Origin: a virus
Lineage: Duplodnaviria > Caudoviricetes
Direction: 5' to 3' (one strand)
Virus record (IMG/VR): IMGVR_UViG_3300030433_000606
Location: 1-58,100 of that record
DNA length: 58,100 bases
The position numbers were made by a program, and so were the translations under genes. This document shows positions 1-58,100 of the stretch, in pieces; position 1 is the first letter of the stretch; each line of letters begins with the position of its first letter. Below the pieces are notes generated by a model, which was not told the DNA's origin, made no database searches, and saw only the letters and a list, made by a program, of their open reading frames with translations.

Positions 1-300
1 TCGGCAACCGTATGGTTGGAGGAAACGCGCGGCGCGGTGACGAACAACCCGCGACACGCGAAACACTTCGCGCCACTTGCGAAAACCGCTTTACTGCGCG
101 GCATATTGCGCCAAGCGAGCGCATCGCGAATGCTTCGCGACGCTACGGGCAAATCGCGTTAGCCGGAGTCGCGTTGTCGCGACGGCAATTTGCCCTGCTT
201 AACCGCGTGCGAAATACAGATATTTTTTTCATGGGGCCAAAAAAAAATCTCCCCCAAAAAAATCGGTATATTGAAGGGCAGAGTTGTCATCGGGCATACG

Positions 301-7032: not shown

Positions 7033-7109
7033 TTCTCGATAATATCATTTTATTATGATAATTAGAATAATATATATTATTATGATAATAATACGAGAAT
7101 ATCGAGAAT
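7032..7109. repeat. AT-rich element with nested inverted and direct repeats
   Basis: 10-bp IR ATTCTCGATA (7032-7041) / TATCGAGAAT (7100-7109); 16-bp palindrome AATAATATATATTATT (7066-7081); 13-bp direct repeat TTATTATGATAAT (7050-7062, 7077-7089). Confidence 0.85.
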
Positions 7110-7177
7110 GAGGTGAATGATTCTGAGCAATCGTTATTTACCAATCGCGAACACGAATATCAAGGAGGTCCCTTGCG

Positions 7178-7702: not shown

Positions 7703-7706
7703 TTTG

Positions 7707-7943
7707 ATGGGTTGGTTATTCAAAACCCCAAGCGATGACGCTACCGAAGCAACATTACGCGCATTACACACACAAAACACCTTAGATACTTACTATGAGC
7801 GCGGAAGAGCATTGATATTTTGTGTCGTGACAGGTGTTGTAACTGCTTTAACGGTTTCATATCTTGAATTACAGACAGATGTTAGCCTTTGGGAGAACAC
7901 TGTTGAGTGGTTTTACAACAAAATACGCGGATGGGTGGGTTAA
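7707..7943 (+). CDS. Small single-TM membrane protein (78 aa)
   Basis: GGAGTGA RBS before ATG 7707 (track start 7644 overlaps the upstream gene); TM segment ALIFCVVTGVVTALTVSYL. Confidence 0.75.
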   Translation: MGWLFKTPSDDATEATLRALHTQNTLDTYYERGRALIFCVVTGVVTALTVSYLELQTDVSLWENTVEWFYNKIRGWVG

Positions 7944-8666: not shown

Positions 8667-8670
8667 TGAA

Positions 8671-9555: not shown

Positions 9556-9564
9556 GGTGGTAAC

Positions 9565-10143: not shown

Positions 10144-10144
10144 T

Positions 10145-10630: not shown

Positions 10631-10668
10631 GGAAAAGGTTCTTTTGCCACCACTACATGGTCTTTGCT

Positions 10669-16570: not shown

Positions 16571-16574
16571 TTGT

Positions 16575-17975
16575 GTGCAGCAATTATCCCTTGAAGCAAT
16601 CGAAGAAATCGACTTTGAAGTAGCGAAGCGTGACTTCAAGTTCTTCTTTGAAGAGATTCTTGGGTTTCAATTATCACACCACCACGAAAGATGGTATAAC
16701 AATCTTGAGAAACGCAAGCGATATTGTGTAAAAGCAGCGCGTGACCACGGTAAGTCAACGCTGTTTCTCGGCTATATGCTATGGAAAACTGCATTCAATC
16801 CAAAGACCAAAGCAGTATTGATTTCACACAGTCTGCATCAGTCTATACACCACATGCGAACACTGAATGATTTAATCGACGGTGTGCCATTCCTTGCTAA
16901 AATGAAGAAGCCGGATAGTTGGTCTAAAACATTCTTCGGTTTTTCTAATGGTTCTAACATTAGCGCGAAATCAGTGGGTGGTGCTATTCGTGGTATTCAC
17001 CCCGATTTGATTCTTTGCGACGACATTCTGTGGGGTACTACCGATACAGAACTTGCTCGCGTTGCATCGTGGTTTTACGAAGTTCTCGTACCGACACTTC
17101 ACCACACATCTAAACTGATGATAGTTGGTACACCGTTTACACCTACTGACCTTTACACTGAACTAGAAAGTCGTGACGGTTATCTTGTTGAAACATATCC
17201 CGCGATAAACGCTCAAGGTGTAGCACTATGGCCGGAGCGATGGGACCTAGAATCATTGGATGCGCGCAGGGCAGATATGCCAGCGATTGCGTTTGCTCGC
17301 GAATATCTGTGTGAACCAATGGACGATGTATCAAGTCTATTCCCTTCAACTATCCTACAAGCCGCGAAAGATAGTACACTCAAAATTATTGAGCGTGAAG
17401 TTGGTGACCCCGACGACCAATACTTCATCGGTTGGGACCCTGCTATTTCGAGTGACCGCGCAGCAGACTACACAGTTATGGTAGTGCTTCGTCGCCCATC
17501 CACTAACCCCGAATTGCTTGAATTAGTTCATGCTGTGCGCCGTAAGAATATGGACTTCCGCACACAAATCATGGAGATTCAGCGTTTGAATGCAAAGTTC
17601 AATCCCGATGTAATTGAACTTGAGGCTAACAACTTCCAGCGTGTTTTCGCGACTGAATTACGCGCTGATACTGACCTTCCTATCAAGACATTCATTTCCA
17701 CACGCCAACGCCGTGAGTCGCTTCTCATGGGTTTGGTGTTACGCTTTGAGAAAGAGCAGATTCGTTTGCCGTGGGGAGATGACCGTTCACGCACGCTCAT
17801 GTCTGAACTTGAGCGAGAATTGCTTATGTTCGGTATGAGTAAGAAGGGTCGCCTTGATAGCATTGGGCGACACGATGACTTTGCTATCGCGTTAGCGTTA
17901 GCACATTGGGCTACTACCGAGTTCCGCGAGCGCATTGTGGACTTAGACGAAGTTATGGCGGGGTTGTTAGATTGA
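16575..17975 (+). CDS. terL: Terminase large subunit
   Basis: Walker A AARDHGKST, Walker B LILCDD, coupling motif VGTP, RNase H-like nuclease IGWDPA and C-terminal HDD; AGGTGA RBS. Confidence 0.95.
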   Translation: MQQLSLEAIEEIDFEVAKRDFKFFFEEILGFQLSHHHERWYNNLEKRKRYCVKAARDHGKSTLFLGYMLWKTAFNPKTKAVLISHSLHQSIHHMRTLNDLIDGVPFLAKMKKPDSWSKTFFGFSNGSNISAKSVGGAIRGIHPDLILCDDILWGTTDTELARVASWFYEVLVPTLHHTSKLMIVGTPFTPTDLYTELESRDGYLVETYPAINAQGVALWPERWDLESLDARRADMPAIAFAREYLCEPMDDVSSLFPSTILQAAKDSTLKIIEREVGDPDDQYFIGWDPAISSDRAADYTVMVVLRRPSTNPELLELVHAVRRKNMDFRTQIMEIQRLNAKFNPDVIELEANNFQRVFATELRADTDLPIKTFISTRQRRESLLMGLVLRFEKEQIRLPWGDDRSRTLMSELERELLMFGMSKKGRLDSIGRHDDFAIALALAHWATTEFRERIVDLDEVMAGLLD

Positions 17976-30285: not shown

Positions 30286-30303
30286 GAATTGTCGCGAAGA
30301 GCA

Positions 30304-40161: not shown

Positions 40162-40163
40162 TT

Positions 40164-41461: not shown

Positions 41462-41469
41462 GTGATTAA

Positions 41470-43182
41470 ATGTCAGATGTCGCCAAACTCAATGATGAAA
41501 CCAGCAAACTGCTGAAGCAGTTAGAAATGCTTGGTATAGTCAATCAAGGTGCTACTAAGCAAATGGGTTTATTTGAGAAGCAACAACTGAAAGTAACCAC
41601 CGCGTTAAGAGCATCCCCTATTGCACAAATGATTAAGACCGCGCAAGGATGGATGGGTGCTACTAAGAATGTCATCAAGATAACGGCGATGAATACAACC
41701 ATGAGCAAAGAACAGAAAAAAGAGCATCGTAAAGGAATGTCAGTGATGCAGAAGTTTACCGCGAGTCTAATTTCAATGGGAGTGGCACAGAAGTTTAGTA
41801 ATAAAATGTTGAAGTTAAGTAACGGTTTATTCTCTAAACTATTGATTAGTGTATTCTCACTTGTCAGCATATTCTTAATTGTAGGATTCGCGCTTGCTGC
41901 TTTATCTGTTGCATTTGAAGGCGCGAATAGCCCTATTCTCGATTTAACAGAGGGTCTAGGTCCTTTACATGACGCGATGCAGGGGTTGGTATTTGTCATA
42001 TCCGGTGAAGGCGATGAAGGCGGTCTATCAACTGCGTTTGATGTTTTGACCGCTGCTATGGTCGCGGGAACTATCGCTGCAATCGCTTTCGGTACTGCTA
42101 TGGGTGCATTAACCGCTTCACTGATAATAGTCGCAGGTGTATTCCGTGGCGTGCAATTAGCGACAGGTGATACCGAATTAGCGATGGTGGTCGCAATCGC
42201 CACAACAGCCGCGCTTACCGGAGGTTTACTTGTATTGAAAGCGACGGCCATAGCCACCGCTACCGGACTAAAGGCTGCTACGATTACGGCGACAGGTGCT
42301 TTCCTTGCTTCATTTGGTTTCATTCTTGCTGGTGCGATGGGATTGTACGCGTGGGTTACAGGTGCGGCTGATGGTTTCAAGGGGTTACTACTCGGTGTGT
42401 TAAGCGCGCTTGCTATATTTGTTGGTTTAGCGATTCTTAGTGTCGGTATAATCCCTGCGGCTATCATCGCGTTTGCTGCTTTCGTAGTTGCGGGTATTAT
42501 CAAGTATTGGGATGTGATTGTCGGCATTCTTACGGGAGCATATCATTGGGTTTTGAAAGGATTAGCACTCATAGGATATACGGTCGTAGGAATGCTCGCT
42601 AGTATTGCTTCGCTTGTTATTGGTACGATAGTGGGGCTGATAACATTCGTTGTTGGTGCAATAGTAACATTCTTTTTGACATTATACAATATCGGTGTGT
42701 CATTTTACAGAAATATAATACTTGGTGGAAACAACTTCATAGCCTTTTTCAAAAGCATACCCGGTGCTATCGCAGATGGATTTGAAGATGGATTCAAAAA
42801 GATATTCAACAGTGTCATTAAGATATACAACAGGTTCGCGAAAAAGATGACTTTCAAGATTCCCGATTGGGTTCCGTATATCGGAGGCGATGAATGGAAA
42901 TTACCTAGAATCCCAAAACTAGCAAAAGGTGGTATTGTTAATTCAGCAACACTTGCAATGATTGGCGAAGATGGGCCGGAAGCCGTAGTTCCTCTTAACC
43001 GAAAGAATAACCCGGCGGGTATAGGTCTTGGTGGTGGTGGTGCTACAACTATCAACATCAATGTTGGCGGAGTCACAGATAGAACCGATAAGCGCGCACT
43101 TGCAAGAGAGATTGGTGATTTGATAAGAGCCGAGATGGACCGCGGTGGTCGCTCACATGGTAACAGGAGGTCGGGTGTATGA
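41470..43182 (+). CDS. Tape measure protein
   Basis: A/G/I/L-rich hydrophobic helices; C-terminal IPKLAKGGIV...MIGEDGPEAVVPL motif typical of tape measures. Confidence 0.85.
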   Translation: MSDVAKLNDETSKLLKQLEMLGIVNQGATKQMGLFEKQQLKVTTALRASPIAQMIKTAQGWMGATKNVIKITAMNTTMSKEQKKEHRKGMSVMQKFTASLISMGVAQKFSNKMLKLSNGLFSKLLISVFSLVSIFLIVGFALAALSVAFEGANSPILDLTEGLGPLHDAMQGLVFVISGEGDEGGLSTAFDVLTAAMVAGTIAAIAFGTAMGALTASLIIVAGVFRGVQLATGDTELAMVVAIATTAALTGGLLVLKATAIATATGLKAATITATGAFLASFGFILAGAMGLYAWVTGAADGFKGLLLGVLSALAIFVGLAILSVGIIPAAIIAFAAFVVAGIIKYWDVIVGILTGAYHWVLKGLALIGYTVVGMLASIASLVIGTIVGLITFVVGAIVTFFLTLYNIGVSFYRNIILGGNNFIAFFKSIPGAIADGFEDGFKKIFNSVIKIYNRFAKKMTFKIPDWVPYIGGDEWKLPRIPKLAKGGIVNSATLAMIGEDGPEAVVPLNRKNNPAGIGLGGGGATTININVGGVTDRTDKRALAREIGDLIRAEMDRGGRSHGNRRSGV

Positions 43183-44333: not shown

Positions 44334-44337
44334 TATT

Positions 44338-47300
44338 ATGGCAGTTATAGGGCAAACAAGTCATGCATTGTTTTTCAACGGTGTTAGCGATAGCGTTGTT
44401 TGCCCTCAAGGTAATTTTATTCAAACGGGTCACAAGCGAGTATTGAACGGTAGCGTTGCGCGCTCATCCGCCCCTGTGTTACAAGATGGTGACGGGCATA
44501 GGTTTTCTAATAACAGAAATCAAACATTGAACAGGTTTACTGTCGAAGCGTGGGTATCACCGGATTGCGGTGGTGTTATCGCGAGCAAAGAAGGATTGTT
44601 TGAACTACGCATGGGAACAGTGAACGCGCCGGGTGTTGCATCATTCAAGGTTGAAATCACAAACGGTGTTACTGTAATCGCTTCAACTGCTAACAACTAC
44701 CCTACTGCTGCTGGCTCTTTCGTAGCAAGCAATGTCGGTTATAACATAGGTCAACGCGAACTGTACCACATATCGGGAGAGTTCAACGGCGAGCAAGTTA
44801 AGTTGTATATCAACGGTGAATTGATGGCATCGCAAAAACTCAACAAAAAATATGCTTGCAGCATGAATGACAAAGACTTGTTCATCGGTGGCAAAGGCGG
44901 AGAATATCGTGGTTACATAGAAAGTGTTCATTGGAAGAATGAAGTATCAAGCATTGAATCTCGCGCTAAACCATTCATGCTATCCACTAGCACAATAGGT
45001 CTTTGGCGTTTTGAAGAACCTGTTGATGTGGATGATACGGTCTTCAAAATAACATCTGATGTAACCGCGGGTGATACAACAATCACAATAGGTGCTACTC
45101 AATGTCAATCATTGTATGAGTTAGTTAGTGGTAAATCAGAAACACTAGCAAGCAATTACACACTAGAAAGTCTCGGCAACTATCAAGTGGCTAACGCTGC
45201 ACATAGTGGTGGCGCACAAGTAATCAGTGTCGCACACACTCCTTACAACATTCTAATCAACCCTACGGCTACCGACATAATGACAGGTATAGCAAACAGT
45301 TCACCACCGGAGAGAGTTAGACTGAAAGCAATTAACACAAACGGTACAATCACCGTTGACAGTATTCATCTTGATTTCACAGTATCTTCGGACACAGGTT
45401 CGCGCGGTGTGCTACATTCAAGAACTGCTTTCAATTCAACTAACAATCTTGCTAATGATTCAACAATGGTTTTGATACGCTCGGACTTACTGATTGACAC
45501 TATATCGGGTAAACCGTTTCAAAGACTAGGCACAGGTAGTCAAGCCATTGATAGAACGGGTGCTATGATTATTGACGAAAGCCCGAATGAGTTTCACGGC
45601 TTTATGTATTCGCGCAGCATGTCTGTCAATTCAAACAACTTTGACCCTGCTAGTTGGACTATTGCAGACCGTTTCAAATCGGGTCACACAGGTAGGCATT
45701 TTTACAGTCACAAAGAAGGTCATCCATATCTAAGGATGTTACCGCCAATACATGAGCAAGAAGTTACTAGAACCATTGATGGTGTTTCTGATGACGCGCT
45801 TGTAACATTCGCAGGAAGTTATCTTGGTTTGAAAGATATGCTACCAATCAATAGTAAAGTCGCAATCACTCATACTACCATCGACGCGAAAATAAAAAAG
45901 GTTACAACATCTGCTACAACAAACGGTTTAGTGCGCAACGGTCTTGCGTCACACGATGCTCACCGTGATGGTGTTATTGCTATATCCGTTGATGACATTC
46001 AACCCTTCTTGTTGAAGGGTGGTGGAGTTGGTGTTAGTTCAACATCTGATTCACAATACAAAAAACACTTGACACCGGAAACCGAGTCGCGTGTTGCTAT
46101 TCTTGAAGTGTCGGGTTTGACCGCTGGTTATGTTGAGGTCCACTACAACGCAGTTGACCTAACAGGAGGGAAAATGGGATTATCAAACCCGGCACTTCTC
46201 ATTACAAAGACCGTACCGGACGGTGGTTGTTTGTTAGACGGTAAGCGTGTAGCCGCGCACATCGCTGATGCTGTTGGTGCTAACGCGACAATACACGCAC
46301 CCGGTGGTGTAATTGTTGTTAGCCCCGAAGATATAGGAAACGCGAATGTAGCATTAAAACCACACCATCTAGTAGGTGACAACACAGGTGGAATCGAGTA
46401 CGAAGAAGATTTAGATGAATCTTTGATACCGTCCAATTATTCACCACGCAACACAGGTGATGAACCTAACAAACCACCGCAAGGAGTTGGCACTACTGTT
46501 CACCCCTCGTCTTATCACAAATTGCATTTACAACCCGCTGAGAGAAGTCAAAGCGACCCACCTGTAAATGAAGCACCAAAATACTACCAAGAGTCTGCTC
46601 AATTCGCATCACAGAAAGGTGGTGCGTTTGAAATGTTTGACATTATTGATAATGACAAAGATGGTGATTCATACATATTCATAGTTCAACCAAGCAAGCG
46701 CGAAAGAACAATGCAATTGTCAAGAGTCACACCTTTCAGTGTTGATTCTAGCGACCCAACACATTTCACCATCGAATACATTCAATCAAATGTTCGCATC
46801 AAATCTATGCAGATAAATGATACAGGCGCGGGCCGTTATGTCGTAATGGAAGGTAAAGGTTTGATGAGTGATGTTGCAGACCAAACTGTTTCATACAGTG
46901 GTGACGGTAGTCGCGATTCACACATTGTAAAAGAGATACAACCCGGCGCACCTGTTGTATCTGTAACACTTGGTGGTCCGGGTCAAGGCGCAGTCAACAC
47001 AAAACCATCGTGGGACCCTTCACCGTTGTCACGCGTTGGTTGGAATACGCGACACGCTTGCGCAGTCGAAGTTAAAGAAATTGATACGACGAATAGAACT
47101 ATCACTGTTCAACCGTTAAACAATCAAGGTGATGGTCTTAGTTCATGGGGTGCATATTGTTTCCCCGCAACAGGAACCGTGTATTTGACAAACGGTTCTA
47201 GTGCTAAATATACAAGCAGAAGCGGCACTCAATTTACTTTCCCTAACGCAAGTGGTGGTAATTCACCTAATTACAAAGTGGGTGGTTCATTTGCTGGCGC

Positions 47301-50300
47301 ATTCTCGACTTGGGTTACAGATAGCAGACTTGAAGAAGGAGATGTATTATTATTAGATGACGAGTTTGACTCTTCATCTATATGTGACGATGGAACCACC
47401 GTTAACGATAGGCTATTCCAATCAATCAGTTCAGTTCAGCACGATTATCAATTAGGCACACAATATGCAAGCACACGCGCGCTTGTTGAAATACCACTTT
47501 TCCCTCAACAATTTTTTGAAGACCGCGAAAAAGGAGTATTCCCCGGCCCCGATAATAGTATGAAACTACACCTTGATGCTACACTAACCGCGCAAGCATG
47601 GAACCCTTCTCCTGTTGGTCGCCGCGCACCAAACTTACCTGCTAAAGATTACGAAGCATTCGGTCAATATCAATACAGTTTAACCAACAACGACACAATT
47701 ACTTTTTCGGTCAAAAGATTTGATAGACAAGGTACTAACGCTAGATTGTATGTAAATGAACCCGATGCGGTCTTGAAAAGATGTTTACCCGAATCTGAGT
47801 TTACTACTTCAGCGGGTGCTGTAAAAGGTGTGATAGCACAAAGGGCTAGAAGAATAATTCTAGGCAATGGTGAATGGTGTTATTACTCATACGCTGGTGG
47901 GACTTATATTGATTTAAGCACAACTGATACTCATTATAGCGAGAACTTTTTTGCCTCTCTCGGTGGTAAGTTTACAATCTCTCCAATGCCGGATAGAACA
48001 GGTTTTCCATTAGCAAGCGACATTGATTATCCTACCGCGGCCCAAGAATATCGTCGCCCGTTTTACTATGACCGTGGTAGCGTAATGACACAAGGTGGCA
48101 ATCTTGATTACGGTTTGCGACAATATGTTAGCGCGGTTGAGTTTAAGGCTGGACCAACTGCTAACCCACACTTACCGAGAATCAAATCAAAAAATGCAGT
48201 TCTTGAATTAATTCTTGTTGACCCCACTTACAGTGGAACAGGTCAACGATTCTTCTTCAAGGGTGATTTACCGAAGGGTCATTTACCAACTAATTATGAG
48301 TTTGCTGCAATAAATGAAGCAACGGGTCGAAAATACTCAATCACTTACACAGGTGGTAATCGGTTTGTAATAGTGGCACACCCAATACTTGACTCAACTG
48401 CTCCATCATTGAGTGTGGGTGCGCGTCTTACAGTTCTCGGTATTTATTCAAAAGTCGCGACAACACTACCACTCAAACTTGAAGATGGTATAGCAAACGC
48501 AACATGGAACAACCCTTACTGTCCGGGTGGTTTGCGTTATGGTGACACTATTTGGATGAATATGCACTACACTAACCCTCATGCAATAGAAGGGTTGTTC
48601 GGAAAATCACGCGGTGTGTTAAACGAATATGAAGTTTGGAAAGGTTTCAATGGCGGCAAGGGAGAATTAGGTAACGAGGCTAGAGATACACTACCTCTTG
48701 AAAACTTCTTGATAGGCGACACTTGTCTTGAAACCGCACGAAACTTTGTGCAACATCTCAATAAAACAATCGAATTGAATTGGACCGAACTCGGACACAC
48801 TACATCCGCGCCTGTTGTTGCTTATCTTGACCCTTATCTTAGCACCGAAACACATGCTCGCGTATTGTTATACGATGTCGCACATGATAGAGAGTTTATC
48901 GCATTCCACGATTTACACATGCAAGTTCAAACTAGCGCGACTACGCCAACTATCAACGGTCTTGATGTAGCAGCAGGTTTCAAAACTCAACGCAAGGATA
49001 AAGCAACAACGATAGGAGAAACCACTCAAGCAATCGGAGGCGTGAATTACAACATTATAGACAGTGAAGGTAAGTCACAATTCATTGAAGGCGCGTATGC
49101 TCACAAGGCATGGTATTTGATGGATGAAAGTTTCTTGACTACAAGTGGTGTAGCGACAAGCAAATACAATAGAAAGGGCAGACAGATTGAACATTACATT
49201 AAGTTTGGCGAGGAAACCGACCAATTCGGTCAAGGTCGCGTATCACAATCAACAGTGTCTTCATCAGCCGCAGCAATCAGACACGCTGAAACCATGCCTA
49301 ACGCAGAATCAGAAAAAGTAATTGACGGCACATTTGGCGCGCATCAATTCAACGCTACATTCTTTGATACACCCGATGGAACACGCGTTATATCAGCATT
49401 CCTTTGTCTGAAAGGTAAGCGTGCAACTAACAACGATTTATCATCCTATACTAATGAACCACAGTTACAACACTTACCGCATTGGACTGACATGGATTTC
49501 GTAAGAAGATTAACAATAGACATGGGTGAAATCGGATTGCGTGAAGGTGTCACCGACATCCAAGCAGCGGCTAAAGAAGTAGTACGAATTATCAATCAAG
49601 GTGGCGCGTTAAACGGTCGTAGTAGTCAACGCAGACCTTCAGACCAATACGCAGGTGAAGGTGAAAGATTTGATATTAACAGACGCGCAGTTTCAACAGG
49701 AGGCGCAGACACAGAAGAACCCACTGATGCCACCGCTGCTCATCTTCACGCAGACTTTGCGGTAACAGGTTCAACACATGACCCTGCATCATTTTGGATG
49801 GATGACGCATTTACTTCATTCGACCGTGGTTCTCACATGGGATATGTTCGCGCACACATCGGTAGGGTTGTTGAAGATTCAGAAGGCAATGAAGGGTTTA
49901 GTATAATTATTCATAGTACAGTACCGGGCGCAACAGGTCGAAACTTCTGTGTATGGCTTGATAATAGCAAAGGACAGGCTGAATACAAGCCTCAATTTTT
50001 GATAGGGCATGGTGGAAGGTTCCGCAACTTCTTTTGCGCACCACCCGAAATAACCGGAGAAAACATGCATCCGGCTCCTATGCCAATCGACAAAAACGGA
50101 AAACCGTTTGCGCCAATTACTACTTTGCGCGAATATGTAGCATTAGATGAAGCAAGTGATGAGTTCTTTACCAACATGCATTTAGGTCACGCGAGTAATT
50201 TTAACACAACAATAGACGGTGAAGATTCACCAAACAGTGGCGCAACAACAGGTCGCAACTCTAACACAGGTGCTATGGAATCATTTGAAGACGGAGGACA

Positions 50301-53300
50301 GAAGTTCACTATCAGAGAAGGTTTACAGAAAGGAACTCGCGCTAGAGCAAGAATAAACTTTGGTGGTATTGTTGCTGCTGGTGTACCGGGATTCGCGCCG
50401 GATGCTGGTAAGTGGGGCTTTGGCGAAGAAGGTAAAAGTAAAGGAAGGTTTCATTCAATATACGGTGGGAATCTTAGTGCTAGTGATGATTATTACAACA
50501 AATACCACCCTTATGTTCCTTCTTCAGAAGTTGATGATGGTGCAGTAGGCACTCAAACATTGTATGGATTAAAAATGGTGGACCATCGAGGCAAGTCACA
50601 CATCATTAGATATGTGTATAGACGCGCAGGGGAGTCTTTTTCGCACAAAAACTCTGTCATGCCTAAGACTATTGATGAAGAGATTATGATTCATTTCGAT
50701 GATAGAGATATAGCACAAGGTGGGTTTACGATTGGTGCAAACATGTGGGGTCAAGGACCCGCGGGTACACCTTTCTATTACACAGGTTCAGACGAAAACA
50801 ATGAATGGAAGGGTAACACATGGAGAGGTGTTCATACACCAAATGTTGGTTACGCAGTAACAATTGATACAGACACTACCGCAAAAACAGGCAGCACATA
50901 TAATAATCCTAACACTTTGATTCTTGATAATGGTTCGGGTGTTGGTTATTACAACAACGGAATATGGCACGATGTACCGGATGTTGATGATGTTCTAGGT
51001 TGGATGGGTTTCCCTAAAACTAATGGTTTGATATGGTTAGCGATTCCAAACGCACACAATCAATATGGTGATGTCGGAGTTGTCTTTAGTTACACTTGGC
51101 GAACCGCGGTTGGTCGAACAGGTCAACAAAAGTTCTTTGGTTTGGAAGGTATAGATGCTGATGATATGGATAATTGGTTTGTTGGTGCGGCATATATGGG
51201 TCCAACAAGTGTTAGCAATCAAAACGCTCCTGTGATTATTAGCCCACACTTAAATCAAACAACCATAGTAACAGACGAGTTAATTGCTGCTGCTACTGCA
51301 TACGCGTTTACTATTGACCCTAACGAAGAAGACCAATACTTTGATTGTAGCAATATGCGCGCACCGGACGGAAGAACATACGGTGAAATACTTGGTGATA
51401 ATGCTGCTACTGCGGTTAAGATAACTACATTTAACACGAAAAAAGAAGTTATTCCGTTGAAAGATTTGTTTGATGTATCTTTAAGTCGCGATTGGGGATT
51501 ACAAGCAAGCACCGCCGAAGCCACAGATGTTGATACCCCTACCGTGGGTAGTGGAGGTCAATTCGGTGGAAGACAAGGCGCATTCCAAGAATTAGACGGG
51601 TTGAACATAGACGCTGGATATTTACCATACACGCTACTAAACATATCAACTAAGTATAGAGGTGCTAATGCTAACACCGCAACACCTGTTCTAATCAACC
51701 AAGCAAATAATGTAGTCAATCTTGATAATTGGCAACAACATCTTCGCGGAGAATTATACACAAGATATGAAGGCGACCATATAACACCTGCTATTGAATC
51801 TCATACACATCGCATTCCATCACAAACAGGAGGTTCTGCTTACCCTAGTGGTACTGAATACACTACTTATCAAGTTCAAGTATATGACCCACATCACTTT
51901 GCTATTCTTGGTCGTCAACACGCGTGGCAGTTACAACATATTAGCGGAGGAACCAACCTTAACCAAGAAACGGTGGCAACTGAGTTCAATGGTGCTATTG
52001 ACGGTTCGTGGAGTGAGTTCAAAAAGATGGATATTAATGAAGATACATACTTGTATTGCGCGGCATTAACACCAATAACGAACCCAACTAACAAAGGAGA
52101 AAGATTAGTTGCTTGGCATCACGACGACAGCAAGGGTGATTTCAAAGACATTCTTGCCACCGAAGTTATAATGCAACCATTTAAGTTTGAAAATGACATT
52201 CAAGGTATTCGTTTAGCCGGTAACCACAAAGGAAACCCGATTCTATATTTTAGAGGCGCGCAAGATAGTATAGACCATCATGTACCGCTTTACTTTGGTG
52301 GTGGTTTCAGTGGTGTAGTTATGGATATTAATGACGGTTCGCGCGTTGATTATTCAACTCACAACAAACATCCTTACGCGAAAGGGCCGACAGGAAGTGC
52401 GGGGTTGCAAGATGTTGGTGAAAAGATGGGAGCATACGCGCTTCTTGACACTACTGCATTGTTTGCTATGTTCCCTGCTACTATACTTTGCAATCAACAT
52501 CGTGGAGAAGCAACACCACCATTTGCAAATCAAGATGCTATACTGAACCCCGACCTTGATGGTAACCAAGATAATCAAAACATACCGAATGCTACATACA
52601 CCAATGTTAAAACTGCTAAACCGATACCTGTAATTCTCCGTTTTGCTCACCCATACGCTAGATACACTGATTCAGAAAACAGTGTCGCGTATGTTATCTT
52701 TGGTCCGGGTCAAGCAGTTCCTAAGCATTGGAGTGGTGAAAGTGGATTAGTAACTGCTTCGACAGAACCTTCTGCTAAGTGGACCGCTGCTTGGAAAAAA
52801 TACTGTTCTCAAGATGGCGCAACAGGAAGTACATACAATCAAGGAAATGAATCGGGTTATTTCCTACCCAACGAATTAAGCAATGGTGAATTGGTTAGCG
52901 GTGCTAATCAGTTTTTACCACCAACTGACGGTTACGGCGCGAGAAATACATTCCCGTACAACGCGTTTAGACATTGGGAACCATCTTATGGTTCTCCTAA
53001 CACAGAGTTCAACCAAACTTCTTCAGTTGAAGCAAGGTATGTGTCTAGTCATTATTGGCACTACAATAGTGCAAGTAAAGACAATGCTAACAGTTACGCG
53101 CATCCATTTTCATTCTATAATGCAGCCGCAAGATTCTCTTCAGCGATAACTGATTTTTCACTAGACAAATTGATTTTCCATCTTGACGGAGGATATACTG
53201 CTGGTGGTTCTTGGTTTGATAACAGTGTACGAAAAAACCCACCACACCCTGTAACTGCTAGATTAATTGATGCTACTAACGCCACTGTTAGTTACATTGA

Positions 53301-56300
53301 CAGGCTTGGTCTAAACGCAACTATGTTCCGCGTTGGTTCGCAGGTTCTTACAGATTACGACCATGACTTAGACGCAGCAGTACCCGATGATGTGTTTTTG
53401 ATAGACGCAACCCGTTGTCAAAATAGCGAAGAGTTAGGTGCAGTCATTGCTTCTGCAATTAATACATGGCCGGGTCGTTCTAACCTAAAGGCTCTCGGTG
53501 GTTCATTTTTACCGTCGTTCCAAGACGCGCAAAGACAAGACCGTTACGGTTGGATAGACATGGGTCTGCTTACCGCGTATGATTCCACAAACGGTATTGT
53601 TTCGATAGGAACTGATTTGCCATTAACATTGCCGGAAAATGGTTGGCTTAGAGTAAGTAACGGCACTGAATCATTATACGGTTATTATTCACATTACGAT
53701 TTCAAAAAATCGTCAATCAGCGCAGTCGGAAGAAGTTTCATACTTGGTGCTAATTTCTCAACAGGAACTACTATGTTAGAAGATGCTACAACTAACGCAC
53801 AAAGAAGCGCAGTAACAGGAAGCGGTCACAAAGTGTTTGTTTGGTCTAAAGCAGGTAATCTAAGATGGGATAACGGATTCCAAAACGCAACCGATAGTAC
53901 GCGTTCAACATCAGCAATAGTGAGAGGAAGTACAACTCAAATGTCTAATGGACCATTCGACCATTTCGCGACCACACAAGTTCACTTTAGCGGTGTAGTT
54001 GATGCAATAGATAGAACACGCGCGGTTGGAGCAGTTGGTTGGCATGGTGAAAGATATTCTTATCTAAACAGTCTAACAGTTGATAGTAACAAAGTAGCAG
54101 CAGGTCTTGGACCGTGGCATCCGATGTTAGGATTTACACCATACGGGGCAGCAACTTCGTGTCATAACCCTAAATCTATTGAATGGGTTCTCAAAGAAAA
54201 CTCTAACCCCGATGGTGGAGAAGCCGAATGGATTCCAAAAACGACCACACACGACGCAATAGGATTACATCAGCGTCACTTTGTAGTCATATCTTACGAA
54301 GGTGATTTACCAATCATAGCAAAAGCAACGCGAAACGGACAACAGGCGTGTGGTGATATGCTATCTCTCAAATGGAGTAGTGGTGCTGGAACTGCACAAG
54401 GTGGTACTGTTACCGCGTATCACAATGAAAGATTCAACAATGACCGTTACAATGCGGAGTCAAACGCTGGTCCACATGTTGAAGCAATGTTTGATACAAC
54501 AATAACAACTCCTACCGATGATGATGCTAATACTAGATTGTGGACTCACGCAGCATCAACAAGTGTTGCGCAAATGGAAACTTGCTTATTCCCAACCGGC
54601 GATTTGTTTTACGATAAAACCCAAAACAAAAACAAACCTCTCTATCCAAACGACGCTATGTTTGATTCAGAAAGTCATACTTTTGAAAATGTAGGGTATA
54701 GTTCATATTCAGCACATAGAGATGGAATATACAGTTATTGGAAAACAAGAAACGCAGCACGCAACTTCTTTACTGAGCATGTTGTTTGGAAGAGAATGAG
54801 TGGTGGAAACCTTACACTACCTGCTCAAAACGCGCGTGGACTTGGTTCTATACCGTGGCAAGTACACAAGGTTGGTAGTGAATACATTAGGTTTGGAGAA
54901 ACAATATACGGTAATGTTCGATTTTCATTTGAAACAACTAACGCGGCTATGTTCCCAATTATTCAAGCGCAAGAATTAGCGCACCCTGCGTTAGCAGAAG
55001 AACATCCATACGAAATACGAAACGCTTTGATTATACCTAACGAAGAGTTGCAATTCAAAGAGATGATGGTTGTCGATGATACAGGTCAAGAACATGTCAT
55101 AGAAGGCGGGTCACCGCTTGGTGTAATTATACGCGACTATGAACTTGTGCATGACCGAGAAAATGAAGGTCTTGCACCTGCGTTAGCAGGTTCCGGTGTA
55201 TCACCTAACATGAAAATACAGTTACCAAATCACGATGAAATACCCGGTAACATACTTGTACGCGCAGGTTTTGACAGGTTACAAGCATATCAGCACGAAA
55301 CATTAGGTAGTGGTGGTTTACAACACCCTAGTCAACCTGTTAGCAATGTTGCTACCGCGTTTGAGTCTAGTGCTGATAGACCTAAGACAGAACCGTATTG
55401 GGAACAAGAAGGTTACGAACATATCAATCAGAATCCAAATAATTTCCCCGATAGTAATAACAGTCTGCAATCAAGGAACATACTAGAAACATCATATGAA
55501 CCACATGACCGCGCATTGTATTTCCATATAACCAAGATGGGTTACACACACACCGAGCGTGAACCATTACGAATTATTGGCAACACTATGACGCTTAACC
55601 AACTTACGGTTGCGTCTGTTGGTACTAACACTATCACCGCTAACACAGCCATTACTGCTGATATTTGGAAACAAGACCCGACACCGGACGGACGATACTT
55701 CTTGTCAATCAACGGTACGATTGCTTCTTTCAAGGATGTAAGTGGAAGTAATTTCACAGAAGTTGTGTTTGCACCGGATTTCAAATGGTCTGCTGGTGAC
55801 AGTATCAAACCGTCGTTCTATATCCCCGCTGGTTCAACAAGGCAGTTTGCTGCACGCCGATTGCGCGACCACGCAGAAGTAAGCGGTAACAGCCCGGACA
55901 AACCTCACACAGATTGGGTTGGTGCTAACAATAGTAAGAGTCCAGCGATTGAAGTTCGCGCGGCTAACAAACTTACACCAATGCCACTACCGCGTATGGG
56001 TCACCACTATGTTATGCCAACTATGGCTACGCTACCGGGTCATCTTGCTCACCCTCAATATCAGCAGATATACGATGTCTCCCGTTCATGTCATGGTGCT
56101 ACTGATTACGATACAGAAAAGACTATTCCAAATCCTCTTCTTTGGTTCTCCGGCCCTACCGCGCCTAACCCACCAAGTGATATTCATGGTGATGGTTTCA
56201 CACTTCTTACAGAAACCAAATTGCGATTTGACGGCTACGGTATAGCAGATGATAGCGCGTCTTGTAATGCTGCGGGAGGGCATCGCATTCAACTTGAAAG

Positions 56301-58100
56301 TGGTACTAACTACAACACACAATGGCACTTCCCCGACCCTGCGGAAGTTGGTGCATATCAGATTGTTATACAACCAAACCTGTTCAGTAAGCAATTCATG
56401 GGTAACAATGCAAACACAGTATTTACTTCAACTGATGCACCGGAAGACCCAAGTGGAACTAATACTACTAAACAAACTCTCACCGACCAAATCTTTGCTA
56501 CGGTAGTTGCACTACAAGCAGGTGACCTCATACTATCAGAAGCAACTATGGCTGATGTGCGCGGTTGTGAAATATACATCAATGAGATTATTCTTGACCT
56601 AGACCCATCAACGCGAGAACAATTTACTAACATTCCAATGTTAGGGTTAAACAACCCGTTTGGTGTCAACGCTTCATCATCCGGTGCATTTACGCGTCGC
56701 AGTATGCCGTACCACCCGAATATGTTCCATCGTTCAACTCCGGGTCACACTGTTACTGTGCCGTGGTGGAGTACCGCTTTCGCATCTTCTAGTATATTCA
56801 ACGCGGTTACTGCTCCGTGGAAAGGCACAGAAATATATCATCCCGATGACTACTACATGTTCTGTCGTTCAACACTTGGTGCGGTAGGAGTACAAACTAC
56901 TATGCTTGGTTACCCATCTCACTACCTTGATGTTTACACTGAGTATTTAGTATCACTAGAACCTACTGCGATTGTTGAACATTGGGATAGTGGAAACAGT
57001 AAACTGTATGTGCGCAACAATACATTATTCCCGCTTGTTGGTGCTAAATATTACGACCAACAACTTGTTTTGATTGATGAAGACGGTATTGAACAAACGG
57101 CAACATATACCGATAGAGGCTATATCAGTGGTGTTGGTGCAGACGGGCCGGTTGTATTCGACGGTGTAACCGCAGTAACAAGTGGGTGGTCTTCTGCTGC
57201 TACCGCAGCGGCTACCGCTAATGACACACTTCGTGTCAAAACAAAGTATAACACAATGTCATCATCAGAAATATACGCTAACTCAGAAGCAAGTGTTGCT
57301 ACTCGAAACTTACCACAGTTGTTGTCCGGTACGCGCGATACTAATTCTTTACACTTACCGGACGCTTATCTTTGTATGTGGCATTACAATCTCGGTCGCC
57401 CGATGACTTGGTTCTCTGATAGCAGAACCAACAAAGGTGACGCAGCAGCAGATTTGAAACCGTATAATCATGCACCCGAACATTATGAAATGATACACTA
57501 TCATGAGTTTAGTTATGTTATGAGTGATGGCCCATTCAAGTTCCGTATGAAATCATGGGAAGGTCCCGGTGACGGATTAACCGACACTTACCCCGATTCT
57601 AATTACACTAACCAAGCAGGTGCAGACGGTAAAACTCGCAAGTATAACTTAGGAGCATTTTGGCCGGGAGGACATCGCTTTGGTGCGCAGATGAGTTCAT
57701 TGACATCTTATGGAACTGCTGCGCCGGGATGGAGAAACAAGTGGGATGACCCTAACATCAAACAAGTTAGTGATGCAAAAGGTCTAACAGTTACAAACGC
57801 TGATGTTGAAACTATGACTGAAACAATTGCTAGTGTATCAAGCACTAAAAAACAAGCCGGTTGGGGTTACAGAGTATCAGTAAGACAACCATACAACAGA
57901 CCGCGTTGGGCTATTAAAAGCAATCAAGCGTTGCGCGACCCTCATGCATATTATCACTACCACGCTGAAGGACCATTCATCAGCAATGAAACTGTTACTA
58001 CACGCACAAACACACAGACAGATAACGGTAACACAACTCCTACTACAACAACAAACCCGTCATATGTTGGAATTATTGAAAGACAAACAAACGCTTCTGC
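44338..58100 (+). CDS. Giant tail/adhesin protein, >4,580 aa, truncated by window end, with an N-terminal LamG/ConA-like domain
   Basis: ATG 44338 (MAVIGQTSHALFFNGVSD...FTVEAWVSP...LYHISGEFNGEQVKLYING...LFIGG...YRGYIESV). The frame reads open wherever checked, and its absence from the ORF track is consistent with no stop before the end. Confidence 0.85.
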   Translation, partial: MAVIGQTSHALFFNGVSDSVVCPQGNFIQTGHKRVLNGSVARSSAPVLQDGDGHRFSNNRNQTLNRFTVEAWVSPDCGGVIASKEGLFELRMGTVNAPGVASFKVEITNGVTVIASTANNYPTAAGSFVASNVGYNIGQRELYHISGEFNGEQVKLYINGELMASQKLNKKYACSMNDKDLFIGGKGGEYRGYIESVHWKNEVSSIESRAKPFMLSTSTIGLWRFEEPVDVDDTVFKITSDVTAGDTTITIGATQCQSLYELVSGKSETLASNYTLESLGNYQVANAAHSGGAQVISVAHTPYNILINPTATDIMTGIANSSPPERVRLKAINTNGTITVDSIHLDFTVSSDTGSRGVLHSRTAFNSTNNLANDSTMVLIRSDLLIDTISGKPFQRLGTGSQAIDRTGAMIIDESPNEFHGFMYSRSMSVNSNNFDPASWTIADRFKSGHTGRHFYSHKEGHPYLRMLPPIHEQEVTRTIDGVSDDALVTFAGSYLGLKDMLPINSKVAITHTTIDAKIKKVTTSATTNGLVRNGLASHDAHRDGVIAISVDDIQPFLLKGGGVGVSSTSDSQYKKHLTPETESRVAILEVSGLTAGYVEVHYNAVDLTGGKMGLSNPALLITKTVPDGGCLLDGKRVAAHIADAVGANATIHAPGGVIVVSPEDIGNANVALKPHHLVGDNTGGIEYEEDLDESLIPSNYSPRNTGDEPNKPPQGVGTTVHPSSYHKLHLQPAERSQSDPPVNEAPKYYQESAQFASQKGGAFEMFDIIDNDKDGDSYIFIVQPSKRERTMQLSRVTPFSVDSSDPTHFTIEYIQSNVRIKSMQINDTGAGRYVVMEGKGLMSDVADQTVSYSGDGSRDSHIVKEIQPGAPVVSVTLGGPGQGAVNTKPSWDPSPLSRVGWNTRHACAVEVKEIDTTNRTITVQPLNNQGDGLSSWGAYCFPATGTVYLTNGSSAKYTSRSGTQFTFPNASGGNSPNYKVGGSFAGAFSTWVTDSRLEEGDVLLLDDEFDSSSICDDGTTVNDRLFQSISSVQHDYQLGTQYASTRALVEIPLFPQQFFEDREKGVFPGPDNSMKLHLDATLTAQAWNPSPVGRRAPNLPAKDYEAFGQYQYSLTNNDTITFSVKRFDRQGTNARLYVNEPDAVLKRCLPESEFTTSAGAVKGVIAQRARRIILGNGEWCYYSYAGGTYIDLSTTDTHYSENFFASLGGKFTISPMPDRTGFPLASDIDYPTAAQEYRRPFYYDRGSVMTQGGNLDYGLRQYVSAVEFKAGPTANPHLPRIKSKNAVLELILVDPTYSGTGQRFFFKGDLPKGHLPTNYEFAAINEATGRKYSITYTGGNRFVIVAHPILDSTAPSLSVGARLTVLGIYSKVATTLPLKLEDGIANATWNNPYCPGGLRYGDTIWMNMHYTNPHAIEGLFGKSRGVLNEYEVWKGFNGGKGELGNEARDTLPLENFLIGDTCLETARNFVQHLNKTIELNWTELGHTTSAPVVAYLDPYLSTETHARVLLYDVAHDREFIAFHDLHMQVQTSATTPTINGLDVAAGFKTQRKDKATTIGETTQAIGGVNYNIIDSEGKSQFIEGAYAHKAWYLMDESFLTTSGVATSKYNRKGRQIEHYIKFGEETDQFGQGRVSQSTVSSSAAAIRHAETMPNAESEKVIDGTFGAHQFNATFFDTPDGTRVISAFLCLKGKRATNNDLSSYTNEPQLQHLPHWTDMDFVRRLTIDMGEIGLREGVTDIQAAAKEVVRIINQGGALNGRSSQRRPSDQYAGEGERFDINRRAVSTGGADTEEPTDATAAHLHADFAVTGSTHDPASFWMDDAFTSFDRGSHMGYVRAHIGRVVEDSEGNEGFSIIIHSTVPGATGRNFCVWLDNSKGQAEYKPQFLIGHGGRFRNFFCAPPEITGENMHPAPMPIDKNGKPFAPITTLREYVALDEASDEFFTNMHLGHASNFNTTIDGEDSPNSGATTGRNSNTGAMESFEDGGQKFTIREGLQKGTRARARINFGGIVAAGVPGFAPDAGKWGFGEEGKSKGRFHSIYGGNLSASDDYYNKYHPYVPSSEVDDGAVGTQTLYGLKMVDHRGKSHIIRYVYRRAGESFSHKNSVMPKTIDEEIMIHFDDRDIAQGGFTIGANMWGQGPAGTPFYYTGSDENNEWKGNTWRGVHTPNVGYAVTIDTDTTAKTGSTYNNPNTLILDNGSGVGYYNNGIWHDVPDVDDVLGWMGFPKTNGLIWLAIPNAHNQYGDVGVVFSYTWRTAVGRTGQQKFFGLEGIDADDMDNWFVGAAYMGPTSVSNQNAPVIISPHLNQTTIVTDELIAAATAYAFTIDPNEEDQYFDCSNMRAPDGRTYGEILGDNAATAVKITTFNTKKEVIPLKDLFDVSLSRDWGLQASTAEATDVDTPTVGSGGQFGGRQGAFQELDGLNIDAGYLPYTLLNISTKYRGANANTATPVLINQANNVVNLDNWQQHLRGELYTRYEGDHITPAIESHTHRIPSQTGGSAYPSGTEYTTYQVQVYDPHHFAILGRQHAWQLQHISGGTNLNQETVATEFNGAIDGSWSEFKKMDINEDTYLYCAALTPITNPTNKGERLVAWHHDDSKGDFKDILATEVIMQPFKFENDIQGIRLAGNHKGNPILYFRGAQDSIDHHVPLYFGGGFSGVVMDINDGSRVDYSTHNKHPYAKGPTGSAGLQDVGEKMGAYALLDTTALFAMFPATILCNQHRGEATPPFANQDAILNPDLDGNQDNQNIPNATYTNVKTAKPIPVILRFAHPYARYTDSENSVAYVIFGPGQAVPKHWSGESGLVTASTEPSAKWTAAWKKYCSQDGATGSTYNQGNESGYFLPNELSNGELVSGANQFLPPTDGYGARNTFPYNAFRHWEPSYGSPNTEFNQTSSVEARYVSSHYWHYNSASKDNANSYAHPFSFYNAAARFSSAITDFSLDKLIFHLDGGYTAGGSWFDNSVRKNPPHPVTARLIDATNATVSYIDRLGLNATMFRVGSQVLTDYDHDLDAAVPDDVFLIDATRCQNSEELGAVIASAINTWPGRSNLKALGGSFLPSFQDAQRQDRYGWIDMGLLTAYDSTNGIVSIGTDLPLTLPENGWLRVSNGTESLYGYYSHYDFKKSSISAVGRSFILGANFSTGTTMLEDATTNAQRSAVTGSGHKVFVWSKAGNLRWDNGFQNATDSTRSTSAIVRGSTTQMSNGPFDHFATTQVHFSGVVDAIDRTRAVGAVGWHGERYSYLNSLTVDSNKVAAGLGPWHPMLGFTPYGAATSCHNPKSIEWVLKENSNPDGGEAEWIPKTTTHDAIGLHQRHFVVISYEGDLPIIAKATRNGQQACGDMLSLKWSSGAGTAQGGTVTAYHNERFNNDRYNAESNAGPHVEAMFDTTITTPTDDDANTRLWTHAASTSVAQMETCLFPTGDLFYDKTQNKNKPLYPNDAMFDSESHTFENVGYSSYSAHRDGIYSYWKTRNAARNFFTEHVVWKRMSGGNLTLPAQNARGLGSIPWQVHKVGSEYIRFGETIYGNVRFSFETTNAAMFPIIQAQELAHPALAEEHPYEIRNALIIPNEELQFKEMMVVDDTGQEHVIEGGSPLGVIIRDYELVHDRENEGLAPALAGSGVSPNMKIQLPNHDEIPGNILVRAGFDRLQAYQHETLGSGGLQHPSQPVSNVATAFESSADRPKTEPYWEQEGYEHINQNPNNFPDSNNSLQSRNILETSYEPHDRALYFHITKMGYTHTEREPLRIIGNTMTLNQLTVASVGTNTITANTAITADIWKQDPTPDGRYFLSINGTIASFKDVSGSNFTEVVFAPDFKWSAGDSIKPSFYIPAGSTRQFAARRLRDHAEVSGNSPDKPHTDWVGANNSKSPAIEVRAANKLTPMPLPRMGHHYVMPTMATLPGHLAHPQYQQIYDVSRSCHGATDYDTEKTIPNPLLWFSGPTAPNPPSDIHGDGFTLLTETKLRFDGYGIADDSASCNAAGGHRIQLESGTNYNTQWHFPDPAEVGAYQIVIQPNLFSKQFMGNNANTVFTSTDAPEDPSGTNTTKQTLTDQIFATVVALQAGDLILSEATMADVRGCEIYINEIILDLDPSTREQFTNIPMLGLNNPFGVNASSSGAFTRRSMPYHPNMFHRSTPGHTVTVPWWSTAFASSSIFNAVTAPWKGTEIYHPDDYYMFCRSTLGAVGVQTTMLGYPSHYLDVYTEYLVSLEPTAIVEHWDSGNSKLYVRNNTLFPLVGAKYYDQQLVLIDEDGIEQTATYTDRGYISGVGADGPVVFDGVTAVTSGWSSAATAAATANDTLRVKTKYNTMSSSEIYANSEASVATRNLPQLLSGTRDTNSLHLPDAYLCMWHYNLGRPMTWFSDSRTNKGDAAADLKPYNHAPEHYEMIHYHEFSYVMSDGPFKFRMKSWEGPGDGLTDTYPDSNYTNQAGADGKTRKYNLGAFWPGGHRFGAQMSSLTSYGTAAPGWRNKWDDPNIKQVSDAKGLTVTNADVETMTETIASVSSTKKQAGWGYRVSVRQPYNRPRWAIKSNQALRDPHAYYHYHAEGPFISNETVTTRTNTQTDNGNTTPTTTTNPSYVGIIERQTNAS

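Follow-up and report, generated by a model that had tools for sequence, protein, structure and literature searches.

The stretch of DNA analysed in this work (hereafter the window; 58,100 bases, 44.3% G+C, IMG/VR record IMGVR_UViG_3300030433_000606) is part of a magrovirus, i.e. a tailed double-stranded DNA (dsDNA) virus of the Marine Group II (Poseidoniales) archaea. It carries all of its long open reading frames (ORFs) on the + strand, and is rated 56% complete, corresponding to about 56% of a magrovirus genome. We are concerned here with the vocabulary of short words in this DNA: direct counts reveal zero copies of GATC, AGCT, ACGT, CCWGG, CCWGA and TCWGG, and 478 copies of CGCG. An earlier note on this sequence had claimed that GATC and AGCT were not to be found, that CCWGR/YCWGG is apparently avoided, and that CGCG is very frequent despite the moderate G+C content (0.443). 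The counts bear out all three claims and add ACGT, which had not been listed.

Affiliation and genes of the window

A tblastn search with the capsid protein of the window matched 11 records, all of them archaeal tailed viruses, with the best match (34.4%) to Haloarcula virus HCTV-1. This pattern agrees with the description of magroviruses by Philosof 2017 (PMC5434244), according to which their major capsid protein is similar (~33%) only to that of haloarchaeal siphoviruses; the head-tail module of magroviruses (capsid protein, portal, prohead protease and terminase) is present in the window too. The same source ascribes to magroviruses a replication module of the archaeal type that is close to complete (PolB, clamp, RFC, primase, MCM, RadA and ligase), and a terminally redundant genome of 65-100 kb (PMC5434244). 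The replication module is not found in the window, a 56% fragment. In the relative G001 (103 kb; capsid 93%; 98% complete) the other arm encodes PolB, an RFC-like AAA+ ATPase, a chaperonin, a DnaQ-like exonuclease and repair nucleases, and there is no Pfam match at E <= 1e-4 to MCM, primase or RadA in this genome. A terminal repeat was searched for in the window and none was found, and the genome size was checked in relatives only: G002 has 106.9 kb with direct terminal repeats, and G001 has 102.9 kb. A further relative, whose capsid protein is 64% identical, was located on a contig of 106 kb in the single-cell genome of a member of the Poseidoniales. Megablast against 50,697 phage records gave no match, i.e. 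none of these isolates is nearly identical to the window. The best terminase match to an isolate, Bacteroides phage DAC16 (27.5%), had suggested a gut phage, a candidate dropped after the capsid search, and halophily of the encoded proteins was ruled out by their ordinary isoelectric points.

The structural genes begin with the terminase large subunit (16575..17975; Pfam Terminase_6N/6C; PHROG 38, E 1.8e-60), followed by a 463-aa (amino acids) protein with a stretch resembling HNH endonucleases (19984..21375; PHROG 5046, E 1.1e-10) and the portal protein (21375..23213; PHROG 18178, E 1.1e-71). A giant ORF of 1994 aa without a family match (24301..30285) separates the portal gene from that of the prohead serine protease (30289..31743; Pfam Peptidase_S78). 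The major capsid protein of the HK97 type (31743..32882; PHROG 24667, E 6.5e-59), which served as the query for collecting relatives, comes next, and further downstream lie genes for a tail tube-like protein (37385..39316; Pfam Phage_tube_2) and a tape-measure-like protein (41470..43182; PHROG 15478 and 1535). The last giant ORF (44338..58098), which has an N-terminal Laminin_G_3 domain, is open at the end of the window and hence longer than 4587 aa; its counterpart in G001 comprises 5109 aa. All these genes are on the + strand, as is a giant ORF of 2280 aa at the opposite end (190..7032), which has no family match and no methyltransferase motif IV. Comparison of this ORF with G001, G002, G003 and the single-cell virus revealed a single homologue, in G001 (29%). 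Among the three giant ORFs the Laminin_G_3 domain is the only family match, and a search for methyltransferase domains found none in them even at E <= 5.

Upstream of the 2280-aa gene there is a hot spot of CGCG (1..210), with 13 sites in 210 nucleotides (nt), i.e. ~5 times the density of the window. It is followed, just upstream of the same gene, by T/A tracts (T7/A9/A7) with short inverted repeats (213-272). G001 has a matching hot spot (19 CGCG in 500 nt, ~101,900-102,400) upstream of the homologous gene, and this hot spot adjoins the end of the contig and a CGCG-poor left arm. The hot-spot region may function in the initiation of replication, in packaging or in regulation. Concerning the window as a whole, its + strand exhibits a strong excess of purines (A 31.4% vs T 24.3%; G 24.1% vs C 20.3%), and the cumulative GC skew climbs over the first 44 kb and is flat thereafter, which fits one-directional transcription of the structural arm.

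Words absent from the window and its relatives

Base composition predicts 216 copies each of GATC, AGCT and ACGT in the window, and the maximal-order Markov expectation ranges between 95 and 215. As a codon null we used 200 synonymous-codon shuffles, in which every protein and the codon usage are kept (coding sequence makes up 94% of the window). These shuffles predict 193+-11 copies of GATC, 208+-12 of AGCT and 144+-9 of ACGT, compared to the observed zero. Ten absent pentamers (CCAGG, CCTGG, CCAGA, TCTGG, CCTGA, TCAGG, CCAGT, ACTGG, CCCAG and CTGGG) are expected 24-58 times each, and GTAGA and TCTAC, also at zero, 55 and 38 times. According to the earlier note, observed/expected ratios near 1 after codon correction would speak against its claims; the ratios obtained are far from 1 (0 vs 144-208 for the tetramers, 478 vs 242 for CGCG).

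The purge extends to longer words. As many as 42 of the 64 palindromic hexamers are absent (codon shuffles: mean 0.3, maximum 3), and 339 hexamers are missing on the + strand (mean 6.5, maximum 15). Among the minimal absent words there are three tetramers, each a palindrome, six pairs of pentamers and 54 pairs of hexamers; palindromes account for 30 of these 54 (chance ~3%). Every asymmetric absent word also has its reverse complement at zero, and the non-palindromic absent hexamers form degenerate sets, e.g. RAATTY, CTRYAG, CCWWGG, GGYRCC, RGCGCY, CYCGRG and GWGCWC, which we take to resemble known Type II specificities. In intergenic DNA, GATC is found 0 times vs 12.6 expected. Since both orientations and non-coding DNA are affected, the depletion acts on duplex DNA.

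Within genes the purge is made by context-dependent synonymous codon choice. The earlier note had pointed out that Asp-Pro/Gln is written GACC, that Pro before Glu, Asp or Gly uses CCC or CCG, and that Ser before Gly uses TCC, TCG or AGY, and these readings hold without a single exception: Asp before a codon starting with C is GAC in 169/169 instances (32% elsewhere), Pro before GA. and GG. codons is CCC or CCG in 174/174, and Ser before GG. codons is AGY, TCC or TCG in 105/105. Thus, the purge has been accomplished almost wholly via synonymous codons, so that the proteins stay conserved.

With the capsid protein as a query we collected 80 loci of relatives from IMG/VR (74-100% identity, G+C 0.43-0.58), and GATC and AGCT are both at zero in all 80. 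The capsid tree has 58 rows, i.e. the loci of at least 8 kb and the window, with 27 of 84 loci left off. AGCT is lacking in 58/58 rows, GATC in 57/58 and CCWGG in 48/58. ACGT is lacking in 31 rows, GTAC in 25, TCGA in 18 and CTAG in 35, and their fewest switches between absence and presence on the tree number 10, 9, 11 and 10, respectively. G001 lacks ACGT, AGCT, CTAG, GATC, GTAC and TCGA throughout its full 103 kb (~400 of each expected). AGCT and GATC are missing from G002, a complete genome with terminal repeats, and AGCT, GATC and CCWGG from G003. The single-cell virus contig lacks AGCT and CCWGG, and has GATC at half of the expected number. ACGT, GTAC, TCGA, CTAG, CCWGG and CGCG form a mosaic of loss and retention that changes fast. 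Among loci L001-L080, those with a capsid protein at least 90% identical to that of the window span 43% to 58% G+C, and nucleotide identity goes down to ~70-76% with proteins still above 85% identical. This fall of nucleotide identity, with the proteins holding, indicates that synonymous sites are near saturation and have been shaped separately in each lineage.

The retention of GATC is linked to methyltransferases. The single-cell virus contig encodes a Dam-like methyltransferase of the D12 class, and two IMG/VR contigs with a homologue of this enzyme also keep GATC; all three carriers have it at 0.5-0.6 of expectation, although these are small numbers. None of the five GATC-free records has a D12 Dam-like gene, none has a PF01555 gene, and only G002 among them has a fragment of a C5-methylase. 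The lineage of the window has neither GATC nor a Dam-like gene.

On the side of the hosts, we counted words in 20 Poseidoniales genome stretches (L130-L149) and searched for gene families in 151 sampled Poseidoniales genomes. The observed/expected ratio (O/E) of AGCT is 0.13-0.41 and that of CGCG 0.17-0.72 in all 20 stretches, and CTAG ranges between 0.00 and 1.05, with several hosts nearly devoid of it (0.00-0.15). TCGA is over-represented in many stretches (O/E up to 2.9), yet it is fully purged by some presumed viruses. For Pacific samples, Hiraoka 2022 (PMC8919816) reports methylation of GATC in nearly all archaeal metagenome-assembled genomes (MAGs), a weak modification of AGCT across Poseidoniia, methylation of CGCG in Euryarchaeota MAGs, and methylation of GTAC in one Euryarchaeota MAG. 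The earlier note had suggested a search for matching methyltransferases; it revealed none in the window or G001, and those of the hosts are patchy (PF00145, the C5 class, in 32/151 genomes and the D12 class in 24/151) apart from a well conserved beta-class enzyme of the PF01555 family (~165-184 bits), present in 88/151. In both loci inspected (L150 5363-6319 of Poseidoniales G008, and L151 5393-6385 of Poseidoniales G007) its gene lies between those of phosphoglycerate kinase and an M24 peptidase. This enzyme might be responsible for the order-wide methylation known from the literature, and its specificity is not evident from the nearest relatives with solved structures.

Excess and spacing of CGCG

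The 478 copies of CGCG compare to 138 expected from base composition, 354 from the Markov model and 242+-11 from codon shuffles (z = 21), which eliminates codon usage alone as an explanation. We also designed a null that takes account of the avoidance itself, in which codon swaps are barred from producing the 312 hexamers that neither strand contains. It gave 257-288 copies in three runs and 268+-11 in a longer run, where CGCG was the strongest outlier of the 256 tetramers (ratio 1.78, z = 18) and GCGC the next palindrome (1.46). Hence, CGCG is 1.6-1.8 times more frequent than in shuffles that respect every absent word. Gibbs resampling of the window with its own codon usage predicts 294 copies with the absent words forbidden (228 unforbidden), and 206 (146 unforbidden) with the codon usage of the CGCG-poor G003. 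For G001, where 1072 copies are observed, the expectation is 982 (774 unforbidden) with its own codon usage and 433 with that of G003, the words being forbidden. About a third of the CGCG excess is a side effect of avoidance. It is not a pure side effect, as the constrained nulls yield 257-294 copies rather than 478.

The excess is found in all three reading frames (observed vs expected 152/91, 81/24 and 205/86 in frames 0, 1 and 2) and outside of the ORFs used (40 vs 8, with 13 of the 40 in the hot spot), which rules out an effect at the level of translation. The signature of a very-short-patch-type repair, namely a depletion of the words that arise by deamination of methylated CGCG (TGCG/CGCA or CGTG/CACG), was not seen in the comparison with constrained shuffles (TGCG 0.82, CGCA 1.06, CGTG 1.09 and CACG 0.98). 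We also rejected a UV-driven preference for alternating purines and pyrimidines, as ACAC/GTGT are only 1.27-1.31-fold enriched and TGTG is low under the Markov model, and the role of CGCG as a shield for overlapping purged words, as only 11 of 367 survivors of depleted words overlap CGCG, below the background of 5.5-7%. No extended or asymmetric motif was detected in the sequences flanking CGCG, only a weak preference for G at position -1.

The sites of CGCG (mean spacing 121 bp) are spread unusually evenly. With the first 250-1000 nt omitted, the dispersion index is 0.42-0.48 in 1-kb bins, 0.46-0.65 in 500-nt bins and 0.34-0.55 in 2-kb bins, at each bin size the lowest among 160 common tetramers. 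It is also below all 12 nulls that keep the proteins, the codon usage, the forbidden words and the total of CGCG (0.89-1.8 at 1 kb), and the lower-tail p of the chi-square test for evenness is 1.4e-4. The sites repel one another at 3-20 nt and weakly out to ~340 nt, without clumps; neither helical nor nucleosome-like periodicity was seen, only the 3-nt period of coding DNA. For 20 CGCG-rich relatives, each 12 kb or longer, the dispersion of CGCG has a median of 0.58 vs 1.15 for common tetramers, and CGCG ranks first in evenness in 4 of these loci and among the top ten in 12. In addition, of the 14 relatives aligned, 13 retain CGCG positions more often than those of tetramers overall, and in 10 the margin is 0.05 or more; in L048, for instance, 62% of CGCG positions are retained vs 36% for tetramers in general.

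On the capsid tree, 34 rows are rich in CGCG, 20 are low and 4 have none, which requires only 4 changes of state and makes the abundance of CGCG a slow trait at the level of clades, unlike the purged words. A gene unique to CGCG-rich genomes was sought, and none could be singled out, because the genomes are too few and the clade-specific ORFs too many.

Two side observations concern other palindromes. L155 (IMGVR_UViG_3300025151_000102, 1-20975), a marine viral contig with a homologue of the D12 methyltransferase, has AGCT as its most enriched tetramer (160 vs 80 expected, 2.0-fold) and also as its most even one (dispersion 0.24, rank 1 of 171), with CGCG at 0 vs 49 expected, ACGT at 2 and CTAG at 1. 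This pattern mirrors that of CGCG in the window with another word and should be regarded only as a lead, as in 20-kb loci a dispersion this low arises by chance for other words. In L049 (1-17255), TGCA (O/E 1.55) exhibits the lowest dispersion of 163 common tetramers (0.23), which may be due to chance in a short locus or may represent another evenly spread palindrome.

Interpretation and comparison with known systems

The explanation that we find best as a whole, and to which we assign a probability of roughly 0.78, is that the words cut by host nucleases have been purged from this genome, and that CGCG is tolerated and has been kept frequent and even. Concerning the absences, we regard it as very probable that they represent restriction-site avoidance, a known strategy that is taken here to an extreme. 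According to this scenario, long-lasting selection would have acted against words that host nucleases cut in unmodified DNA. GATC and AGCT, purged in every close relative, would be ancient targets, nearly universal in the host order, while ACGT, GTAC, TCGA, CTAG, CCGG, CCWGG, CGCG and many families of hexamers, which are gained and lost from one close relative to the next, would follow patchy restriction repertoires of host strains. As the window and its fullest relative are without a DNA methyltransferase, purging would be their main protection. The earlier note had ascribed the avoidance to restriction or methylation targets of the host. This view is upheld by the Type II-like palindromes, the effect in both orientations, the intergenic purge, the differences between relatives, the AGCT-poor hosts and the published modification of GATC, AGCT, CGCG and GTAC in the host order. 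The absences, their symmetry, the mosaic among the relatives, the depletion of AGCT in the hosts and the link between methyltransferases and GATC are observed; as no matching nuclease was found in the sampled hosts, the restriction enzymes that drive the purge are those whose action we infer.

Other origins of the absences can be envisaged. GATC and AGCT could be missing because a nuclease of the virus itself breaks down host DNA wherever they occur. The words purged without exception are those reported to be modified across the host group (PMC8919816), the viruses encode nucleases of the HNH, PD-(D/E)XK and ERCC4 types, and some archaeal viruses carry restriction enzymes possibly directed against host DNA (Liu 2021, PMC8651126). 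However, the nucleases in question are ordinary enzymes of packaging and recombination, the depletion of AGCT in 20/20 host stretches points to cutting on the host side, the relatives that encode a Dam-like enzyme keep GATC, as expected of protection from a host enzyme, and the fast mosaic of the other words fits host repertoires, so that we consider this possibility improbable. Still less probable is a purge of GATC that serves to escape methyl-directed nicking by a MutH-like enzyme, as proposed for enterobacterial phages. Widespread methylation of GATC in the hosts (PMC8919816), the orphan appearance of the conserved host methyltransferase and the precedent of phiX174 (PMC5014478) speak for it, but the MutH family was found in 0/151 host genomes, and AGCT, ACGT and the other purged words would be left unexplained. 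An artefact of library preparation or assembly, in favour of which we found nothing, is next to impossible, given that the same absences recur in 80 contigs from many IMG/VR sample numbers and in a single-cell assembly, that the long ORFs are intact, and that the missing words differ between relatives.

The reading of CGCG is less firm. The earlier note proposed that it is positively selected as a functional mark, possibly methylated. Statistically this proposal stands, as the excess survives the controls for codons and avoidance, the spacing is even and the positions are conserved, but none of the uses put forward (methyl mark, self-recognition, packaging, replication) was borne out. We lean towards direct selection on CGCG at the level of DNA as a genome-wide mark, which could be recognised by a protein with a 4-bp palindrome as its binding site, with a methyl mark or a function in replication as its likeliest uses. 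We favour this over a passive origin, which appears possible but distinctly less likely, namely that CGCG (together with GCGC) is a safe G+C-rich palindrome never restricted in the hosts of this clade, into which CpG and GpC are piled by the purges of ACGT, TCGA, CCGG, GGCC and AGCT and by the drift of codons to GCG and CGC. In agreement with the passive origin, forbidding the absent words raises the expected CGCG (242 to 268 with codon swaps; 228 to 294 and 146 to 206 for the window and 774 to 982 for G001 with Gibbs resampling), the residual of G001 over its own usage is only 1.09-fold, the products of single steps are mildly enriched (ACGC 1.16, GCGT 1.23), and CGCG-rich lineages tend to have the most purged tetramers. 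On the other hand, the window retains a residual of 1.6-1.8-fold, with CGCG as the top outlier by far, and the usage of a CGCG-poor relative with constraints accounts for 206 vs 478 copies in the window and 433 vs 1072 in G001. Moreover, GATC, AGCT and ACGT are missing from L038 just as from the window, yet its CGCG stands at 0.24 of expectation. Were the sink passive, the spacing should be Poisson or clumped, not at a dispersion of 0.42-0.55, and positions should show no extra conservation, which is nevertheless seen.

As regards the possible uses, it is tempting, if rather doubtful, to consider CGCG as a methylation mark set by a host CGCG methyltransferase or by a viral enzyme of an unrecognised family, with the dense and even methylated carpet serving as a self-like mark or a shield, similarly to GATC in haloarchaeal viruses that encode Dam. 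A 4-bp palindrome is a typical target of Type II methyltransferases, methylation of CGCG is reported in marine Euryarchaeota MAGs (PMC8919816), and all four NCGCGN palindromic hexamers are present in a genome devoid of 42/64 palindromic hexamers. Furthermore, just as GATC is either frequent or absent in haloviruses (PMC8651126), CGCG is here either 2-3.6-fold enriched or low to absent, with 4 changes of state. Against the methyl mark, neither PF01555, PF02086 or PF00145 nor motif IV together with motif I was found in the ORFs of the window or of G001 (98% complete), the survivors of depleted words do not overlap CGCG, and enrichment is not known to bring a benefit over mere tolerance. A role in viral replication, where CGCG would be a start site of primase or a site of a junction-resolving nuclease needed on both strands at short regular intervals, seems to us unlikely. 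The sites, 121 bp apart on average, exhibit long-range repulsion and no clumps, and archaeal Okazaki fragments measure roughly 100-150 nt; primases usually read trinucleotides, which need no enrichment, and we know of no primase or resolvase specificity for magroviruses. No extended or asymmetric consensus was found in the flanks, and this role is pure inference. Further support comes from a trait of CGCG that is clade-level and runs against host composition, and from the replisome, including primase, that magroviruses encode themselves (PMC5434244). As a tentative generalization, each lineage of marine archaeal tailed viruses might keep one 4-bp palindrome as a dense and even genome-wide mark (CGCG here, possibly AGCT in L155) and purge nearly all other short palindromes; such a lineage-specific mark would be read by a viral or host protein via methylation, priming or junction cutting. 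If true, it would constitute a new kind of self-identity signal at the level of sequence in viral DNA.

Several observations weigh against the overall explanation of host-cut words purged and CGCG kept. The assignment of the host is based on one single-cell genome, and three other, weaker capsid matches were found in MAGs labelled Parvibaculum (two contigs) and Flavobacteriaceae, which are probably binning noise. GATC is not generally depleted in the hosts (O/E 0.19-1.65 in the 20 stretches). The DpnII and the MutH/Sau3AI families were each found in 0/151 Poseidoniales genomes, most of which are incomplete MAGs, negatives that are limited by the fact that restriction enzymes often escape family models; nor was any host nuclease of matching specificity found in the sampled Poseidoniales, and the PF01555 methyltransferase looks like an orphan, because no nuclease gene adjoins it in 2/2 loci. 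Concerning CGCG, avoidance alone lifts its expected number by 11-47%, depending on the null, and the slight residual of G001 over its own codon usage and constraints counts here as well. The dispersion climbs to 0.75-0.92 if the hot spot is counted, a second CGCG-rich clade is without even spacing (L053 and L061, at 1.15), and the relatives that replicate the evenness share ancestry and genome region. Finally, since CGCG is a palindrome, the cause of its excess may lie at the level of RNA.

Marine Group II archaea belong to the most numerous microbes of the ocean and cannot be grown, and the genomes of magroviruses may be regarded as a readable record of the DNA words that these uncultured hosts cut. 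The host group as a whole seems to target GATC and AGCT, and about eight more words and many families of hexamers differ between close relatives, a mosaic that implies that hosts without an annotated matching nuclease possess a rich restriction arsenal, subject to fast change. The sets of purged words could provide a handle, from sequence only, for pairing viruses with host strains. CGCG represents a second layer, a word seemingly held frequent and even by selection, against the composition of the host.

Avoidance of restriction sites is said to have been described by Sharp in 1986, and counter-selection of GATC in enterobacterial phages reportedly by Deschavanne and Radman in 1991. In the main magrovirus papers of the library searched, we found no mention of restriction, GATC, palindromes or methyltransferases. 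According to Rusinov 2018 (PMC6286503), complete or nearly complete elimination of sites occurs in about a tenth of prokaryotic viral genomes. The window resembles these cases as a lytic dsDNA virus with short Type II-like palindromes purged. It differs from them in scale, with three tetramers, six pentamer pairs and 42/64 palindromic hexamers missing, and in the contrast between two words purged throughout the relatives and others whose mosaic changes rapidly; the enzymes that cut are here, moreover, deduced from the viral side. Counter-selection of GATC through Dam and MutH is described for phiX174 and enterobacterial phages (PMC5014478), with which the window shares the complete absence of GATC from a virus whose host methylates this word. 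Unlike there, the MutH family is missing from the 151 host genomes and many other words are purged.

The closest parallel is provided by haloarchaeal tailed viruses, in which, according to Liu 2021 (PMC8651126), GATC is frequent (6.5-11 per kb) if a methyltransferase is encoded and otherwise absent. They belong to the same class of viruses and to a related capsid lineage (34% to HCTV-1), and the rule for GATC, methylate or purge, is the same, with a phiCh1-like Dam in the former and a Dam-like gene in magroviruses. In contrast, the frequent word of the window is CGCG, for which no methyltransferase was found, its sites are even, and the hosts are CGCG-poor. As far as our searches show, it is this enrichment with even spacing that constitutes the new element. 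With this respect CGCG may be compared to signal words of the Chi type. Chi, an asymmetric and oriented word, is enriched in the host, whereas CGCG is palindromic, depleted in the host and has no known reader; the likeness is that of a short word kept frequent throughout the genome by selection on its density, and not on single sites.

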